A stretch of 40,148 nt of DNA, taken from positions 1-40,148 of the forward strand of contig JANLTL010000540.1 in assembly GCA_031362905.1 (NCBI GenBank), read 5' to 3'. This stretch comes from Burkholderiales bacterium (GTDB taxonomy: Bacteria; Pseudomonadota; Gammaproteobacteria; Burkholderiales; JAEUOS01). This document shows positions 15,309-20,953 of this stretch, in pieces; the stretch's first letter is position 1, and each line of letters starts with the position of its first letter. The notes beneath the pieces are model-generated. The model had not been told where the DNA came from. It searched no databases and worked only from the letters and a program-made list of their open reading frames with translations. The translations under genes were made by a program, and so were the position numbers.

Positions 15309-16259
15309 ATGGCAAGCAGCGGCGACCGCACCAAGGAGCCAACGCAGCATGTGCCGCAAGGCGCTGCTGCGGAAGACTGTGTGGTGTTGTTCGCTGATGT
15401 CGCCGGCAGTACCAAGCTCTATGAGGCTTTCGGCGATGCGGTCGCCAAGAAATTGGTCGACGAGGTATTGGCTGCACTCACCATCATCACGCGCCGTCAC
15501 AGCGGCCGCGTGGTCAAGACCATTGGTGATGAAGTGATGTGTGTCTTCACCGACGCTGCGCGCGGCTTTTACGCTGCAGCCGACATGCAGCAGAAGATCG
15601 ACTCGATGCCGGTGGTGGGTGGCAGCAAACGGCGCATTCGCATCGGCTTTCATTCCGGGCCGGTGATCGAGGAAAAAGGCGACGTATTCGGTGACACCGT
15701 CAATACCGCCGCGCGCATGTCGGGCCTCGCACGCGGCATGCAAATCATGACTTCGCGCGCCACGGTCGATGCGCTGCCGTCGAACCTGCGCGGCCGCACG
15801 CGCAGTATTGCCTCGGTCTCGGTCAAGGGCAAGACCGATGACGTAGCGGTCTGCGAAGTGCTATGGCAGGATGAGGACGACCTGACAATGACGGTGGCCG
15901 CACTGTCGGCGACCACGATCCAGGCCGAGCTCGCCCACCAGATCGTCCTGCGGCACGAGGGTACCGAAATCACCCTCGATGCCGGCCGCACCAGCGCGGG
16001 GATGGGGCGTGACCCGGGCAGCGACATCGTGATCGCCGATGCCAAGGCGTCACGCCACCATGCCCGCATCGAAAAGCGCCGTGACAAGTTTTTTCTCGCC
16101 GACCAAAGCACCAACGGCACTTTCGTGACCTTCAATGGCGAGCGCGAAATCGCCCTGCGGCGCGAGGAAATCATGCTGCGCGGTACCGGGCAAATCCGCT
16201 TCGGCCACAGTGCCACCGAGGGCTCCGGTGAAACAGTTGACTTCACCCTCGGGGCCTGA
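15309..16259 (+). CDS. Class III adenylate/guanylate cyclase fused to a C-terminal FHA domain
   Basis: Cyclase motifs VVLFADVAGSTKLYE, GRVVKTIGDEVMCVF and GDVFGDTVNTAARM supply the metal-binding Asp residues, the Lys next to the second Asp, and the transition-state Asn/Arg. FHA signature: GRDPGSDIVI ... ASRHHARI ... DQSTNGTFV. There is no TM segment and no other sensor domain. Confidence 0.85.
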   Translation: MASSGDRTKEPTQHVPQGAAAEDCVVLFADVAGSTKLYEAFGDAVAKKLVDEVLAALTIITRRHSGRVVKTIGDEVMCVFTDAARGFYAAADMQQKIDSMPVVGGSKRRIRIGFHSGPVIEEKGDVFGDTVNTAARMSGLARGMQIMTSRATVDALPSNLRGRTRSIASVSVKGKTDDVAVCEVLWQDEDDLTMTVAALSATTIQAELAHQIVLRHEGTEITLDAGRTSAGMGRDPGSDIVIADAKASRHHARIEKRRDKFFLADQSTNGTFVTFNGEREIALRREEIMLRGTGQIRFGHSATEGSGETVDFTLGA

Positions 16260-16330
16260 GGCTCGGTACCCGGGCACGCGCCGCGCTGCCCCGTGACGCG
16301 CCTGCTCGCGCATTCCATCGCACCGCCACC

Positions 16331-19300
16331 ATGTCATCACCGCCACCCGCTGCCGTGCCCGACAACCCGCGCGAAGAGTTATCGGTTGAACTCAAGCGCC
16401 AAACGTCCGAGTTTCTGGCGCGGGTGCAGGTCAAGCGCACCGAGTCGATCAACTTGCAAAAAGCGCATGCCGAGGAGTTGAAGACGGCCGTGCTGGCCGA
16501 GGCGCAGGCGCGGCGAGCACGTGATTTGGCAGTGGCGCGCGTAGAAAAAACCCGGAGTGAGCGTGCCGCCGCGGAGGAAGCAGCAACCCGCGCTGACGCG
16601 GAACTTGCGCAATTGCGCGCCAGATTGGCGGAGACCGAGCGGCGCATCCAGACCGCGGGCACGGCGCCGGTGGTCAATCCGGTAGCGGCAACCGGCACTC
16701 CCTCTGCGACAGCAGCGCCCGCCCCCCTGGACCGTCAGGTGCAGGCTGCGGAATTGCGCCGCGCCACCCTCCAAGTGAACGAACTCGAAGCACGCCTGCG
16801 CGAGCTGACCAGCCAACGCGAGCAAGTCGAGCATGAGCGTGACCAGTTGGCCCAGGCCGCGCAGGCAGCCGCACGAGAACGCGCCCAGATGCAAGAGGCC
16901 AAGATCCAGATGGAACGCGAGCACGCGCAGCTCGCTGCAGCGTACGCACAGTCGGGGCCGGCGCAAGAACAGCTTGCCGCCACCTTGCGCGCGGCAGAGG
17001 CGGAGCGTGACCGGTTGGCCGCTGACCTGCGCGCCGCTCAGGCAGAACGTGCCGAGATCACTTCTGCCATGCGCAACGTCGAGCAACAGCGCGACCGCTG
17101 GGTCGTGGACAAGCTCCGGGCCGAGACCGAGGGTGCGCGCCTGGCTGCCGCCCTGGGCAGCGCCGAACAAGAACGCGACGCAGCCCAGGCCGCGCGCATC
17201 GAAGCTCTCGCCGCTGCGTCTGCCCCCGCTGCAGTGGCAGATGACGCTGTCGCCGCTGGCGCGTCCTCCGGCTCCACGGCGCAGCAGGCGGCCGCGGCCC
17301 CTGCCACGCTTGGCGTGACCCAAAGTCTCCAGGTCATCGCCGAGAGCTATCAACCCGGCGCGCCTTCTGCATTGGGCGGCCTTAGCCTCGCGTTCCCCAC
17401 TGCACAAGGGACCGCCGAATTGCAGCAAACGGAAGCAGCCATCGAAGCCGAGCGTGCCAAGGTTGCGGCAGCAGCGAAGAAGCTTGAAGAAGCTGTGCGC
17501 GCGCGCCTTGCCACCGAGCAACGGGTGCGTAACGAAACGCAAAAACTTGAACTGGCAGAGCACGAACTGGCAAAGGCCGAACAGGAGCAGCTAAGGATCG
17601 CCGAAGAGGTGGAGCAGGAAAAATCCCAGCGCACAAGCCTGGAACAGCAACTTGCCGATGCGCGCACTGGCCGCGCGGAGCTGGACCAATTCCTGACCGA
17701 CACCGCCGCCGAGCACGATCGCAAAAAGCGAGAACTTCAAAGCCTGCGGGCACAGACTGACGCCACACTGGTCGATCTTGCGCGCGCCAACGGCGAACTC
17801 AGGGAAACCGGCGTGCGCCTGCTGGAAGCCCGCACCGCGCAGGAGACACACGCACCTGCCTTCGGTGCGGCGAAAGGGGCATTGGCCGATACGCTTGCGC
17901 AAGTCGCTTCTCTGGAGAGCGATATCAAGCGCGAGCGCACCGCCCTGAGCGCTGCGCAAGAAGACCTAAGCAAGGTGCGCAGTGAAGCCGCGCAGCAACA
18001 GGACGAACTGGCGGCGGCCAGGATAGAGCAAGACCGTGCGGCGGTGTCGCTCACTGCGGCGCGTACCGACGCCGCTGCGGCTGCGCGCGACGCTGCCACA
18101 GTGCGCAGTCAGGTGGAAGCGAGCCGTGTTGCACTTGCCGCTTACGAGGCGCAAGCGGCCGATCATCAAACCCGGCTGACCGAGGCGCAAACGCAGGCTG
18201 CCGCGCTCGAATCGGGCTTGCGCCGTCAACGCGCCGCACTGGACACGATGCGCAGTCACGTGGTGGCCGTACGCGCCGAGCGCGCGCAGGCGGAGCAGGA
18301 ACTGGCGGATGCAGCAGCGGCAAAGCAAGGCGCCAAAGCCATACTGGATGCTGCCCGCGAACAGACCGCCCAAACGGCACGCGAAGCAGCAGCGGCGCGC
18401 GCGCGCCTTGACGCAGACCGCGGCGTGCTGAACGACCATGAAACCAAGGCCGGCGCGCTGAAGGCGGCACTGGCCACGGCGCTGGCCACCTTATCGGGCC
18501 TTGAGGCCGACACTGCGCGTGAACGCGAGGCCCTCACTGCCGCAGAGCAGGCGCTCGATGCGGTCAAGGCGCGCCGCGCCGACGCTGAAACGCGCCGCGG
18601 CGAAGCCGATGCGCGGCGCGCCGAGTTGCAATCGCAAGTACTCGTCGAGCAACGCGCGCTGGACGAGCTGACACGCCAGATCAATGGCTTGACCGCGCGC
18701 AAAGCGGAGCAGCAGGCGATCCTGGACGCCGGCGAGAGCACGCTCAAGGAAACCGCTGAGCGTACCAGCATGATTGAGGCGGCGCGCCGTCAACGCGAAG
18801 CACAGCTCGTCGCGGCAGCGGAACAGAACGCAGCAATGGCGCGCGACATGCGCGCTGCCATCAGCGAAAGGGACGAAGCACAGCGGCAGTTGGATGGCTT
18901 GCGCGCAGAGCGGCAGACACTGGAAGAAAACGCGGCACGCGAGCGCGGCGCGGCGGCGCGCGAGCACAGCGCAGTGCAAACCGGACGCGCTGGCCGCAAG
19001 CGCGCCGAGATCGAGTTTGCCGCGCTGCGACAGGAACATGCGGACGGAGCAGCGCGCCTGGCCGCCGCCAATGCGGCGCTGGAGGATCTGCGCGCCGCCG
19101 TCACAGCGATAGAGCAGCAGCAAGCGGCCGCCGGCAGCGAACTGGCAGCCCGCGAGTCTGCCCTCGACACCCAAGCGCAGCAATTACGCGCCCTGGAACA
19201 AGAACACGCACAATCAGAGCAGGCAACTGCGGCAGAACACGAGCGCGCAGCCCTGGCCCGCACGCTACTCACCACGGCCCAACAGGCGCTCGCCGAAACC

Positions 19301-20953
19301 GAGGAGGCCACCCGGAACGCCATCAGCGAACGGACCAGCGTCAGCCACGCCTTGCGTGCAGCACAGGGGCAGCGCGACAGCCTGCTTGCGCAAATCGCCG
19401 CCGCCAAGGCCGAGAGTGACGCTGCACAAGCCGCTTGGCAGTCAGCGCGATATGATGCGGCGGCCCTGGCACGCCGCGTCACACTGGAACAGGAGGAGAG
19501 CGCCCATCTGGACACGCTGCTGCAATTGTCGGCAGCGGAACGGCGTGCACTCGATGCTGATTACGCGCGCGCGCGACTGGCACAAGCGGCGTTGCGTGCA
19601 CAGTTGGCTGCGACGGCTGCCGAGGCGGCGGCGGCGGCAACCACCGCGACGCTCAATGCAGCGAGCGCAGCGCGCACGAGCGATGCGCTGCTGGCAGAGC
19701 ATGCCGCTGCCGCAGAATCAGCCGAACGTGCGCTTGCCGAAGCACTGCTGCGCGTGCAAACTGCCGAAGCAGCGCGTCAACAGGCAATTGCACAAGCTGA
19801 ACACATCGCGTCTGCGCCACCGGACACCTCCGCTCTCGACGCAGCACACAAGGCCGCTGCCGAAACCGCCGCCACGGCGGCGCAACAGACCGCCAACAGT
19901 CTCGCCGAAGCCGCTCTGGAGGCCCTCAAAGAACGCGAAGACACGCTCCGGTCAGAACTGCGTACGCGCGAGCAAGCGCTGCAACAGCAACATGCCGACA
20001 CCGAATCGGCGCTGCAATCGGCTGCCGCAGACTTCGCCCAAATCGAGGCGCGCCTGATCGAAACCGAAGCCGCTCAACAGGATGCCCAGACACGTCTCGA
20101 TACGGCGCGTACGCGCGGTGCAGCCGCGCTGGACGTGCTCAATCACGAAGAAGCCGCCGCCGCCGAGATCGAGAAAGACCTGGCGGCTGCCAGGGCGCGC
20201 ACCATCGAAGCACGTGCCACTTTGCAAATGGCGAGCGAGCAGACGGCTCTCAGTGAGGAAGAGGCGCGCGAATTTGCCGCCGCCGCGCATGCCCGCGTAG
20301 CCGAAGCCACAGAGGCGGGAGAAGCGGCGGAGGCGGCACGATCGGCAGCCGCACAGGCCGTTGCCGAGGCTGCCCGGATCGCCGCAGCCGACGCCGCACA
20401 GATTGCCTCGGCAGAGGCCGCTCATCAAGCCGCCAAGGCCGAACTTGAACGCTTGCAGCGCGAAATCGAACTTGCCACCCTTGACTCTGCCGCCGCGCGC
20501 AACCGGCTTGCACTCGAACGCTCTGACGAAACCACCGCCCGTGTGGAACTGAAGCAAACACTCCAACGCAAGCCGGTCCGTGTCCGTGCCGCGTCAGCGG
20601 AACGCCGCTGGGCACGCTATGGCGTGCCCGCAGCGCTGGCGGCCCTGCTGGCCGCCGTCTATTTCATCCCGCGTGTGCTGCAGCCGCCGCAAGATGTCCC
20701 ACAGGCGCAGTCCACACCCCGCGACGCCGCAACTGCGGCTTCGCGCCCAAGCCCCCCCGCTTCTGCGGCCCCCGCAACCGCCATGGCCACGCCCGTCGTG
20801 ACACCAGCGGCGGCTCCCGGATCGAACCCGGCATCGAACCCTTTGGCTGCGCCTGCAGCGGCAGTAGTCACGCCGCTCTATTCAGTCGACGCCAACGCGC
20901 GCCGCGACCTCAAACTCACCTATGAGTTGAAACCACGTCAGCGCAAGCCTTAG
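16331..20953 (+). CDS. Giant (1540 aa) tail-anchored coiled-coil protein of unknown function
   Basis: Uninterrupted 4.6-kb ORF dominated by Ala/Glu/Arg/Gln/Leu/Thr/Asp with very few Pro or Gly. The exceptions are two Pro/Ala/Gly linkers (about nt 16652-16729 and 17213-17416). One hydrophobic helix, GVPAALAALLAAVYFIPRVL (20621-20680), is preceded by the basic stretch RKPVRVRAASAERRWARY. A 90-aa Pro/Ala/Thr-rich tail follows. No N-terminal signal peptide. Confidence 0.8.
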   Translation: MSSPPPAAVPDNPREELSVELKRQTSEFLARVQVKRTESINLQKAHAEELKTAVLAEAQARRARDLAVARVEKTRSERAAAEEAATRADAELAQLRARLAETERRIQTAGTAPVVNPVAATGTPSATAAPAPLDRQVQAAELRRATLQVNELEARLRELTSQREQVEHERDQLAQAAQAAARERAQMQEAKIQMEREHAQLAAAYAQSGPAQEQLAATLRAAEAERDRLAADLRAAQAERAEITSAMRNVEQQRDRWVVDKLRAETEGARLAAALGSAEQERDAAQAARIEALAAASAPAAVADDAVAAGASSGSTAQQAAAAPATLGVTQSLQVIAESYQPGAPSALGGLSLAFPTAQGTAELQQTEAAIEAERAKVAAAAKKLEEAVRARLATEQRVRNETQKLELAEHELAKAEQEQLRIAEEVEQEKSQRTSLEQQLADARTGRAELDQFLTDTAAEHDRKKRELQSLRAQTDATLVDLARANGELRETGVRLLEARTAQETHAPAFGAAKGALADTLAQVASLESDIKRERTALSAAQEDLSKVRSEAAQQQDELAAARIEQDRAAVSLTAARTDAAAAARDAATVRSQVEASRVALAAYEAQAADHQTRLTEAQTQAAALESGLRRQRAALDTMRSHVVAVRAERAQAEQELADAAAAKQGAKAILDAAREQTAQTAREAAAARARLDADRGVLNDHETKAGALKAALATALATLSGLEADTAREREALTAAEQALDAVKARRADAETRRGEADARRAELQSQVLVEQRALDELTRQINGLTARKAEQQAILDAGESTLKETAERTSMIEAARRQREAQLVAAAEQNAAMARDMRAAISERDEAQRQLDGLRAERQTLEENAARERGAAAREHSAVQTGRAGRKRAEIEFAALRQEHADGAARLAAANAALEDLRAAVTAIEQQQAAAGSELAARESALDTQAQQLRALEQEHAQSEQATAAEHERAALARTLLTTAQQALAETEEATRNAISERTSVSHALRAAQGQRDSLLAQIAAAKAESDAAQAAWQSARYDAAALARRVTLEQEESAHLDTLLQLSAAERRALDADYARARLAQAALRAQLAATAAEAAAAATTATLNAASAARTSDALLAEHAAAAESAERALAEALLRVQTAEAARQQAIAQAEHIASAPPDTSALDAAHKAAAETAATAAQQTANSLAEAALEALKEREDTLRSELRTREQALQQQHADTESALQSAAADFAQIEARLIETEAAQQDAQTRLDTARTRGAAALDVLNHEEAAAAEIEKDLAAARARTIEARATLQMASEQTALSEEEAREFAAAAHARVAEATEAGEAAEAARSAAAQAVAEAARIAAADAAQIASAEAAHQAAKAELERLQREIELATLDSAAARNRLALERSDETTARVELKQTLQRKPVRVRAASAERRWARYGVPAALAALLAAVYFIPRVLQPPQDVPQAQSTPRDAATAASRPSPPASAAPATAMATPVVTPAAAPGSNPASNPLAAPAAAVVTPLYSVDANARRDLKLTYELKPRQRKP

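Follow-up and report, generated by a model that had tools for sequence, protein, structure and literature searches.

Long coiled-coil scaffolds organize polarity, division and signaling in the few bacterial species in which they have been studied, and, to our knowledge, almost all of the known ones are far shorter than the protein described here or are interrupted. In Caulobacter crescentus, PodJ consists of cytoplasmic coiled coils, a transmembrane (TM) anchor and a periplasmic part, and serves as the polar scaffold of the signaling enzyme PleC; it is 974 aa long, with six separate coiled coils and folded TPR and peptidoglycan-binding domains in the periplasm (PMC8980812). An FHA protein that recognizes a membrane protein is known from type VI secretion, where Fha is reported to bind a phosphothreonine of the membrane protein TssL (PMC3953482). 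TolA, FimV and HubP are long bitopic proteins of the envelope, either helical or repetitive, that contain Pro/Ala-rich spacers; all are anchored at the N-terminus, and FimV and HubP have periplasmic LysM domains. In eukaryotes, the golgins giantin and golgin-84 and the KASH nesprins combine a giant cytoplasmic rod with a C-terminal TM segment and an N-terminal capture element; nesprin rods are made of spectrin repeats and golgin lumenal tails are minimal, while KASH proteins place a short conserved peptide across the membrane from the rod.

Here we analyzed a window of 40,148 nucleotides, the whole stretch of Burkholderiales DNA under study, which encodes a giant protein of 1540 residues downstream of a nucleotide cyclase fused to an FHA domain (cyclase-FHA). 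Like PodJ, the giant protein is predicted to have, in this order, cytoplasmic coiled coils at the N-terminus, a region of disorder, one TM segment and a periplasmic C-terminal part; unlike PodJ, it has a single ~1050-residue rod and no more than a short motif in the periplasm, and its putative partner is the cyclase-FHA rather than a histidine kinase. It resembles TolA, FimV and HubP in general build, but its predicted orientation is the opposite. The original prediction had singled out this reversal, correctly, although PodJ provides a precedent for it (PMC8980812). No sequence relation links the giant protein to golgins or nesprins, with which it may be compared by analogy only, including the short peptide across the membrane from the rod.

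Results

A conserved gene of a narrow family

The giant gene occupies positions 16331 to 20953 of the window on the forward (+) strand, as an open frame uninterrupted across 1540 codons and followed by a stop. Its product contains 28% Ala, 11% Glu, 10% Arg, 9.5% Leu and 8% Gln. The richness in Ala, Arg and Glu, together with the absence of database domains and of a clear Shine-Dalgarno sequence, could point to an artefactual frame in GC-rich DNA or to disordered low-complexity filler. Against this stand a dN/dS of 0.18-0.19 (comparison with L018/L019), a heptad signal with z = 39 (see below), AlphaFold2 (AF2) helices with pLDDT ~90, and the conservation of the start, head, TM segment and C-terminal motifs across 12 genomes or contigs. 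Twelve full-length orthologues, 1248-1693 aa long, were found and all are intact. DNA tandem repeats in the gene are trivial. Thus, the open frame is a real gene under selection, the chance that it is an artefact or filler being negligible and the artefactual-frame reading already refuted for practical purposes; the view that such an artefact was unlikely, taken earlier from the sequence alone, is borne out by the dN/dS of 0.18 and the 12 full-length orthologues.

Two genera of uncultured Burkholderiales carry the family, and a third has a short form of 446 aa; the carriers of the giant gene are uncultured MAGs. Searches against Pfam and NCBIfam identified no domain in the family. Pfam gave sub-threshold matches of the giant protein to Fez1 and A-type-inclusion models only, and NCBIfam only matches to SMC arms, far below the cut-off. 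An SMC or ASRP identity was rejected: the TIGR02168 match reached 45.8 bits, where the cut-off is 567, and was limited to model positions 676-946, in the coiled-coil arm, and the ATPase heads and hinge of SMC are missing. A profile of the N-terminal head produced only weak matches to tropomyosin, which shares the Ala-rich core; these and the SMC-arm matches are owed to coiled-coil composition. Word-indexed homology searches with aa 1390-1540 and aa 1-110 returned no matches, nor did a phmmer search of the PDB with the whole protein. Against 1.84e9 representative proteins, the head profile recovered six fragments of the giant's own family and nothing else, and a metagenome scan with the head alignment added six further contigs. 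In the literature, we found no description of a tail-anchored giant bacterial coiled coil or of a module combining an FHA-cyclase with a coiled coil.

The 446-aa short form (loci L030 and L031; G017/G018) matches the head with 46% identity over 56 aa (E 3e-7) but is without the ELS.ELKRQ start. Its rod is ~300 residues long, and the protein ends with the TM helix, lacking a periplasmic tail; the ...IYLVPRYL end of this helix is present in both the short form and the giant protein.

Head, linkers and a candidate FHA-docking motif

AF2 models, built with an 8-sequence alignment, place helices at aa 13-110, 131-297, 329-339 and 359-399 of the N-terminal part, with disorder (pLDDT <50) at aa 112-130, 298-328 and 340-357. 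The segment layout originally read from the translation was thereby reproduced almost to the residue, and the peptides and coordinates quoted for it all proved accurate (TESI, 16439-16450; linker 1, 16652-16729; linker 2, 17213-17416; TM helix, 20621-20680). The helical head (aa 13-110; 16367-16660, +; pLDDT ~90) is the best-conserved region of the protein, with 22 invariant positions in 12 sequences and the consensus ELS.ELKRQ ... KR[TS]E.I.L ... Q.RRA+DLA. It is followed by the disordered, Pro/Ala/Thr-rich linker 1 (aa 111-130; 16661-16720, +; pLDDT <50), the length of which differs between orthologues, and by a heptad-patterned helical segment 2 (aa 131-297; 16721-17221, +; pLDDT 85-97). 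The latter is mostly deleted in L020, L021 and L022, and is dispensable.

Linker 2 (aa 298-358; 17222-17404, +) is disordered in the AF2 model save for one short conserved element, the linear motif LGVTQSLQVIAESYQP (aa 327-342; 17309-17356, +), in which T330, Q331, A337 and P342 are invariant in 12/12 sequences. Within T330-Q-S-L, T and Q never vary and the +3 position is L or M in all 12, even though the surrounding disordered linker is otherwise unconserved. AF2 models the T330 element as a short helix with low confidence. Judging by this conservation, the motif is a candidate phosphothreonine site for FHA docking, with a putative role in phosphorylation. Attention had earlier been drawn instead to FHA-type T-x-x-I/F motifs in the head, but their threonines, T25 and T37, are not kept: that of KRTESI is Ser in 3/8 orthologues and that of RQTSEF is Ala in 4/8. 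The invariant T330-Q-x-[L/M] of linker 2 is thus the better candidate ligand.

A regular coiled-coil rod

The rod extends over aa 359-1412 (17405-20566, +), as delimited by AF2 and heptad analysis; the AF2 helix continues to aa 1412 and is broken at 1413-1422. Its strictly regular part (aa 365-1092; 17423-19606, +) comprises ~104 heptads in one frame, and the single frame can be followed from aa 365 to ~1100 (~105 consecutive heptads). The period-3.5 power of the rod has z = 39 against shuffled sequences. In each 70-aa block between aa 365 and ~1064, 64-91% of the large hydrophobic residues fall on the same two of the seven positions, where 29% is expected; 57% and 31% of the residues at the core positions are large hydrophobics, compared with 6-8% elsewhere. 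In the regular part, Leu accounts for 40% of the residues at one core position, and the other has 35% Ala and 20% Leu. Heptad periodicity is likewise present in the orthologues. The rod is therefore a canonical left-handed coiled coil and not low-complexity disorder, as the original prediction held, and the AF2 helices agree. That prediction also described the rod as nearly uninterrupted, which is true of its helicity (only three prolines, at 509, 1163 and 1164, lie within aa 363-1425), whereas the single heptad frame covers about two thirds of it; several frame shifts occur in the last third, aa 1100-1425. Because the single frame ends near aa 1100, the length of ~150 nm proposed earlier is an upper bound; at 0.1485 nm per residue, the strictly regular part would measure ~105 nm.

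A 98-aa module is present three times in the regular part (aa 512-546, 624-658 and 708-742), and rod length varies among orthologues by whole modules of this size. Of 28 indels of at least five residues in the regular rod, 17 have a length of 7n or 7n+4, with ~8 expected by chance; a 98-aa deletion and several 11-residue insertions are among these 17. The pattern further supports a gene under selection.

Membrane anchor and predicted periplasmic tail

The rod leads through a basic juxtamembrane stretch, RKPVRVRAASAERRWARY (aa 1413-1430; 20567-20620, +; R1426 invariant), into the TM helix (aa 1431-1450; 20621-20680, +), which is kept in all orthologues and in the short form and ends in a conserved Y..PR (Y1444, P1447 and R1448 invariant). 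The Kyte-Doolittle score over 19 residues peaks at 1.94 (aa 1432) and does not exceed 1.17 elsewhere in the protein, and an AF2 helix at 1423-1449 covers the segment. The flanking charge is +6 N-terminal and -1 C-terminal to the helix, and the hydropathy scan revealed no N-terminal hydrophobic segment or signal peptide. Because of this charge bias, the missing signal peptide and the improbability that 1430 residues would be exported in its absence, the giant protein is predicted to be a bitopic inner-membrane protein with ~1430 N-terminal residues in the cytoplasm and the C-terminus outside. Hydropathy and flank charge thus support computationally the topology proposed at the outset, with one C-terminal TM helix, a cytoplasmic rod and a periplasmic tail. 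A surface fibril like the M protein of Gram-positive bacteria was ruled out, the protein having no signal peptide and no LPXTG and the host being diderm.

Beyond the membrane lies a tail of 90 aa (52-90 aa across orthologues, spacer included). It consists of a Pro/Ala-rich spacer (aa 1451-1513; 20681-20869, +) and a C-terminal motif, TPLYSVDANARRDLKLTYELK (aa 1514-1534; 20870-20932, +), both predicted to be periplasmic. The motif (consensus PLY..D..A.RDL.L; P1515, L1516, D1520, A1523, R1525, D1526, L1527 and L1529 invariant) is conserved across orthologues and is the second-best conserved part of the protein, whereas the spacer is free to vary. AF2 models the tail as disordered, with a short low-confidence helix at 1521-1532. 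Pfam and NCBIfam revealed no TPR/Sel1 or peptidoglycan-binding domain of the PodJ type in the tail, and LysM, FimV and TolA models found no match in the protein, whose sole TM segment is that at aa 1431-1450. Proteins of the strict tail-anchored class have no N-terminal signal and at most ~30-40 residues beyond the TM segment; with 90 residues (52-80 in orthologues) after it, the giant protein falls outside this class, to which the 446-aa homologue in G018 belongs.

The upstream cyclase-FHA gene and its linkage

Directly upstream, on the same strand, lies a gene for a 316-aa class III nucleotide cyclase with an FHA domain (15309-16259, +; Pfam Guanylate_cyc, E 8e-19, aa 21-176; FHA, E 2e-13, aa 232-299). 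All signature motifs of both domains are present (FADVAGST, KTIGD, GDTVNTAAR, GR, SRHH and NG), and FADVAGST, KTIGD and G-D-x5-N-x3-R (GDVFGDTVNTAAR) mark the enzyme as a class III adenylate cyclase. These supply what we take to be the two metal-binding Asp, the Lys/Asp substrate pair and the transition-state Asn and Arg. The FHA part also gives sub-threshold matches to the TagH and FhaB models. Within the 71-nt gap between the two genes (16260-16330, +), where no clear Shine-Dalgarno sequence is seen, a scan for promoters and terminators found no site resembling either; we infer that the two genes are co-transcribed.

The giant gene follows a same-strand cyclase-FHA gene in 13/13 loci that could be judged, and the linked cyclase-FHA copies form two strongly supported clades, apart from a kinase-linked paralogue that g2 genomes also carry. 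The 446-aa homologue (G017/G018), too, is encoded within a cluster for a cyclase-FHA and a Ser/Thr kinase; the cluster at L030/L031 comprises the kinase, two helper lipoproteins, an FHA-cyclase of the same family as the giant's neighbor, and the short tail-anchored protein. Neither the kinase nor the helper genes of this cluster turned up in G000 or most g1 genomes, and the giant's own locus encodes no kinase or phosphatase; G000 encodes 15 or more Hanks kinases, one of them on contig C438. An orthologue of the cyclase-FHA is present in 21/21 family genomes, including 9/11 g4 genomes without any rod form, so that the cyclase can do without the rod protein. At g2-type loci, the gene between the cyclase-FHA and the giant encodes a lipoprotein that carries a domain resembling the TonB C-terminus (Pfam TonB_2, E 6e-6). 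This lipoprotein occurs in 18/21 family genomes regardless of the giant gene, and on a separate contig in g1; in G000 it is encoded on contig C650. It was accordingly dismissed as a dedicated periplasmic partner.

Discussion

The giant protein is probably a signaling scaffold or tether, a role predicted from its architecture and its neighbor. The best reading, which we hold tentatively, is that it resembles PodJ and, anchored C-terminally, scaffolds the cyclase-FHA enzyme whose gene lies directly upstream. The rod would be a parallel homo-oligomer, probably a dimer, reaching ~100-150 nm from the membrane and keeping the head and the T-Q linker off it. One of the many Hanks-type Ser/Thr kinases of the host would phosphorylate a conserved threonine, T330 being the best candidate; the FHA domain would dock on it, and docking would localize or switch cyclic-nucleotide synthesis, while the periplasmic motif may fasten the anchor to an envelope partner. 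By analogy, this logic would be that of PodJ scaffolding PleC or of Fha binding phospho-TssL. In the Fha/PpkA/TssL switch, an FHA protein is likewise reported to read a phosphothreonine on a protein anchored in the inner membrane (PMC3953482); the giant locus differs in having no type VI secretion genes and no kinase or phosphatase and in the fusion of FHA to a cyclase, and phosphorylation of the giant protein is itself a prediction. The 13/13 linkage, the separate clades of the linked cyclase-FHA copies, the similar setting of the 446-aa homologue, the 71-nt gap free of terminator-like sites, the intact signature residues of cyclase and FHA, the wealth of Hanks kinases in G000 and the invariant T330-Q331 count in favor of a scaffold. 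Against it count the adjacency in only two to three related genera, which shared ancestry could explain, the low-confidence helix at T330, the lack of a kinase at the locus, and the presence of the cyclase-FHA in all 21 family genomes, with most g4 genomes devoid of the rod protein.

The occurrence of the cyclase-FHA gene without the rod protein in most of the family speaks for a membrane-attached cytoskeletal element in the manner of intermediate filaments (cf. crescentin, FilP/Scy and Helicobacter Ccrp). Such a protein would assemble beneath the inner membrane, as filaments or as a lattice, and contribute to cell shape, polarity or division, the cyclase-FHA neighbor being incidental or merely regulatory. 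The great length and regularity of the rod, its Ala/Leu core, the variation of its length by whole 98-aa modules and the weak tropomyosin-like matches of the head profile all suit such an element. However, Pfam, NCBIfam and PDB searches uncovered no sequence relation to described filament formers, the conserved head, T-Q linker and periplasmic motif suggest specific docking rather than bulk polymerization, and so narrow and patchy a distribution would be unexpected in a core shape determinant; we consider this reading a serious contender, if a rather doubtful one. The conservation of the end motif across a variable spacer, and the TonB_2-type lipoprotein gene between cyclase-FHA and giant in g2-type loci, could instead indicate a trans-envelope tether of KASH- or TonB-type design, in which the motif attaches to peptidoglycan or to a protein of the periplasm or outer membrane and mechanically couples a site in the envelope to a cytoplasmic structure that the head holds. 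Such a tether is unlikely: the lipoprotein is found with or without the giant, the short homologue lacks a periplasmic tail altogether, and the structure of the motif is not confidently predicted.

A bolder version of the scaffold would make the giant protein a bacterial golgin- or KASH-type tether that spatially organizes cyclic-nucleotide signaling far into the cell interior. The periplasmic peptide would pin the rod at a fixed site of the envelope, and the rod, a rigid molecular ruler of ~100-150 nm with its length set by the 98-aa (14-heptad) modules and differing by species, would set how far from the membrane the phospho-regulated cyclase, or some other cytoplasmic body that the head captures, is kept; we regard this as a long shot. 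Very improbable is an antiparallel fold-back hairpin of the rod resembling SMC/Rad50 arms, which would halve its reach and bring the head beside the membrane. SMC coiled-coil arms are the sole family-model matches and a conserved Gly-containing patch lies near the rod midpoint (~aa 873-888), yet the SMC match covers the coil only, the heptad frame is unbroken through aa 855-924, and the indels of L021 remove ~100 residues from the first half and almost none from the second, which would leave the arms unbalanced. An SMC-like hairpin was rejected as very unlikely on the strength of indel asymmetry and frame continuity.

The family is unusual in combining ~105 heptads in one frame with a C-terminal anchor, a conserved periplasmic peptide and an FHA-cyclase partner of its own. 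Provided that this partnership exists, the natural series of rod lengths (1248-1693 aa) would lend itself to testing the effects of length, and the system would represent a new way to place cAMP/cGMP synthesis spatially under the control of Ser/Thr phosphorylation in a proteobacterium.

A genuine gene confined to one lineage

The open reading frame at 16331-20953 (+) consists of 1540 stop-free codons, and its product, hereafter the giant protein, is rich in Ala (28%), Glu (11%), Arg (10%), Leu (9.5%) and Gln (8%). Among the genomes searched, intact orthologues of 1248-1693 aa occur throughout the window's own genus (g1; all 6 further species) and a sister genus (g2; all 3 species), and metagenome contigs add 4 full-length copies. 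Comparison with the two closest orthologues gives a dN/dS ratio of 0.18; between these two it is 0.19, at dS 0.09. Given the intact orthologues and these ratios, which argue against an artefact, the chance that the frame is spurious is negligible. Thus, the gene is genuine, as the original prediction held, and the peptides and coordinates assigned to it were all verified.

The giant protein yielded no significant Pfam match, nothing in a phmmer search of the PDB, and only SMC coiled-coil arms in NCBIfam (45.8 bits versus a cut-off of 567). A profile of its head retrieved only weak matches to tropomyosin, and in 1.84 billion representative proteins it matched six sequences, all of them fragments of the giant's own family. 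A head-pattern scan of 185,579 GTDB species matched only seven uncultured "Burkholderiales bacterium" MAGs. The giant protein represents an undescribed family restricted to one lineage.

A 446-aa protein is encoded at L031:9364-10704 (+) in G018 and at G017:C5:2287-3636 (-), 2 of 11 species in a third genus of the family, g4, which lacks the giant. Its head segment is 46% identical to that of the giant over 56 aa (E 3e-7), and its transmembrane (TM) helix likewise ends in ...IYLVPRYLP. The stop codon comes immediately afterwards and leaves no periplasmic tail; the protein is a short relative, tail-anchored in the strict sense. A second, weaker match to the TM and C-terminal profile (E 6e-6) lies at G004:C5:9800-10060 (+) in a g1 genome, within a 494-aa open frame that may be a further relative or a mere chance TM match.

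Domain layout and conserved positions

AlphaFold2 modelling of aa 1-400 with an eight-orthologue alignment (mean pLDDT 77) placed helices at 13-110, 131-297, 329-339 and 359-399, separated by stretches with pLDDT <50 (112-130, 298-328 and 340-357), which agrees within a few residues with the segment layout proposed from the sequence. In the model of aa 1360-1540, a helix extends to aa 1412, is broken at the basic stretch, resumes at 1423-1449 and gives way to a disordered Pro/Ala region, with a low-confidence short helix at the last conserved motif. A single segment, aa 1431-1450, is hydrophobic (Kyte-Doolittle 19-residue mean 1.94 versus 1.17 for the next best) and is flanked by charges of +6 on its N side and -1 on its C side; the N-terminus has no such segment. 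Computationally, the giant protein is bitopic (N-in/C-out): its head, two hinges and 100-150 nm rod precede the TM helix, which is followed on the periplasmic side by the spacer and the C-terminal motif.

Comparison of 12 full-length proteins revealed 95 invariant positions, which cluster at five sites: the head (among others, L17, S18, E20-Q24, K35, R36); a short element of linker 2 with the consensus [VL]-T-Q-[ST]-[LM] (T330, Q331, A337, P342); the first rod turns (a cluster from E386 to R398); the juxtamembrane Arg and TM helix end (R1426, Y1444, P1447, R1448); and the C-terminal motif P-L-Y-x-x-D-x-x-A-x-R-D-L-x-L (P1515, L1516, D1520, A1523, R1525, D1526, L1527, L1529). Linker 1, helical segment 2 (mostly absent in three orthologues) and the Pro/Ala spacer vary freely. 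FHA domains are specific for phosphothreonine, and T-x-x-I/F motifs in the head had been noted as candidate FHA motifs that could be chance occurrences; conservation does not bear them out, T37 being replaced by Ser in three orthologues and T25 by Ala in four.

A long coiled coil in a single heptad frame

Between aa 363 and 1425, which contain only three prolines (509, 1163 and 1164), the period-3.5 power of large hydrophobics exceeds that of shuffles by 39 standard deviations. Over exactly 100 heptads (aa 393-1092), the first core position carries 57% large hydrophobics, including 40% Leu, and the second, three or four residues away, 31% plus 35% Ala, versus 6-8% at each of the remaining five; positions flanking the core are rich in Arg, Glu and Gln. 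The same two positions hold 64-91% of the hydrophobics in each 70-residue block from aa 365 to ~1064, and the frame is therefore unbroken for ~105 heptads, a strictly regular part that would measure ~105 nm from the rise per residue. Several frame shifts follow beyond ~aa 1100. Thus, the predicted ~1060-aa rod is indeed a coiled coil, but not in one frame throughout, and the ~150 nm originally estimated is an upper bound. Long heptad runs likewise occur in the orthologues.

A 98-residue (14-heptad) module is present in three copies, at aa 512-546, 624-658 and 708-742 (17864-18556), with self-scores of 85 and 71 versus at most 64 in 20 shuffles. Of 28 indels of at least 5 residues in the regular part, 17 are 7n or 7n+4 long, versus ~8 by chance, an excess that we regard as no more than suggestive because the sequences are related and the counts non-independent. 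Among these indels is a 98-residue deletion in the orthologue at locus L021, which lacks exactly this number within aa 512-742; this suggests that rod length changes by whole modules. They also include several 11-residue insertions in g2-type proteins; in L022, L023 and L024, such hendecad-sized insertions recur at positions equivalent to aa 562-595 and 649 and move the frame by four positions, a classic coiled-coil stutter.

A dedicated cyclase-FHA neighbour

Directly upstream on the same strand, at 15309-16259 (+), lies the gene for a 316-aa class III nucleotide cyclase with an FHA domain (cyclase-FHA), separated from the giant gene by 71 nt in which no terminator-like site was found. The product retains the cyclase motifs that we take to serve metal binding, substrate binding and transition-state stabilization, as well as the FHA GR, SxxH and NG motifs. 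Other neighbours (Slt, a class V aminotransferase and a convergent indolepyruvate oxidoreductase) have no evident link to the giant.

All 21 other genomes of the family carry a cyclase-FHA orthologue. In g4, it is followed by a convergent ~800-aa Hanks kinase and two secreted helper proteins, and the gene for the 446-aa relative lies just past this kinase-helper block on the cyclase strand; removal of the block gives the g1 arrangement, and no helper gene was found in the window's own genome or in four other g1 genomes. In g2 genomes, one cyclase-FHA paralogue adjoins the helper genes and a second the giant. Such pairs are found in G007 (C61 and C487), G010 (C89 and C65) and G005 (C90 and C360), each paralogue with its own neighbours, which are kinase and helper lipoproteins in one case and the giant in the other. 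A maximum-likelihood tree groups the giant-linked copies into two strongly supported clades (g1, 100/99; g2 plus metagenome, 100/100), both apart from the helper-linked g2 copies (100/100); the tree allows, but does not demonstrate, that the giant-linked lineage arose only once (68/15). At L028:3652-5718 (G008), tandem cyclase-FHA genes, 59% and 48% identical to the one described here, follow the aminotransferase gene, and no rod protein is encoded downstream of them. The window's own genome encodes at least 15 Hanks-type Ser/Thr kinases (for example, C438:1449-2276, C210:7053-7979 and C675:24550-25635), many for a Burkholderiales genome of ~5 Mb.

Possible function of the giant protein

We tentatively propose, as plausible yet short of probable, that the rod is a parallel oligomer that scaffolds or tethers its dedicated cyclase-FHA. 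Within the flexible hinge, the invariant T330-Q-x-[L/M] would be the most plausible candidate for a kinase target and FHA docking site, and binding of the periplasmic motif to an envelope partner would hold the anchor in place. There are precedents: PodJ, which scaffolds the kinase PleC, combines cytoplasmic coiled coils and a disordered region with a TM anchor and periplasmic domains (PMC8980812), and Fha is reported to bind a phosphothreonine of the inner-membrane protein TssL (PMC3953482). The main weaknesses of the proposal are its narrow phylogenetic base and the fact that most relatives have cyclase-FHA without a rod.

That the giant is instead a filament-forming cytoskeletal element is possible but unlikely. 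A trans-envelope tether, which we consider rather improbable, would fit the divergent gene for a TonB C-terminal-like lipoprotein (170-206 aa; Pfam TonB_2, E 6e-6) between the cyclase-FHA and giant genes in g2-type loci (L050:5951-6460 (-), L051:6235-6855 (-), and about 3050-3700 in L012 and L014); however, this family occurs irrespective of the giant, in 18 of 21 genomes, and in the window's own genome lies on contig C650. An SMC-like fold-back of the rod into a hairpin is very improbable, because the heptad frame continues through the rod midpoint and the indels are unbalanced.

Membrane-anchored coiled-coil scaffolds are already known as a kind. What is new in the giant protein is that it combines an unbroken heptad run of exceptional length with an anchor at the C-terminus, a conserved periplasmic peptide and an FHA-cyclase encoded next door as its dedicated neighbour.
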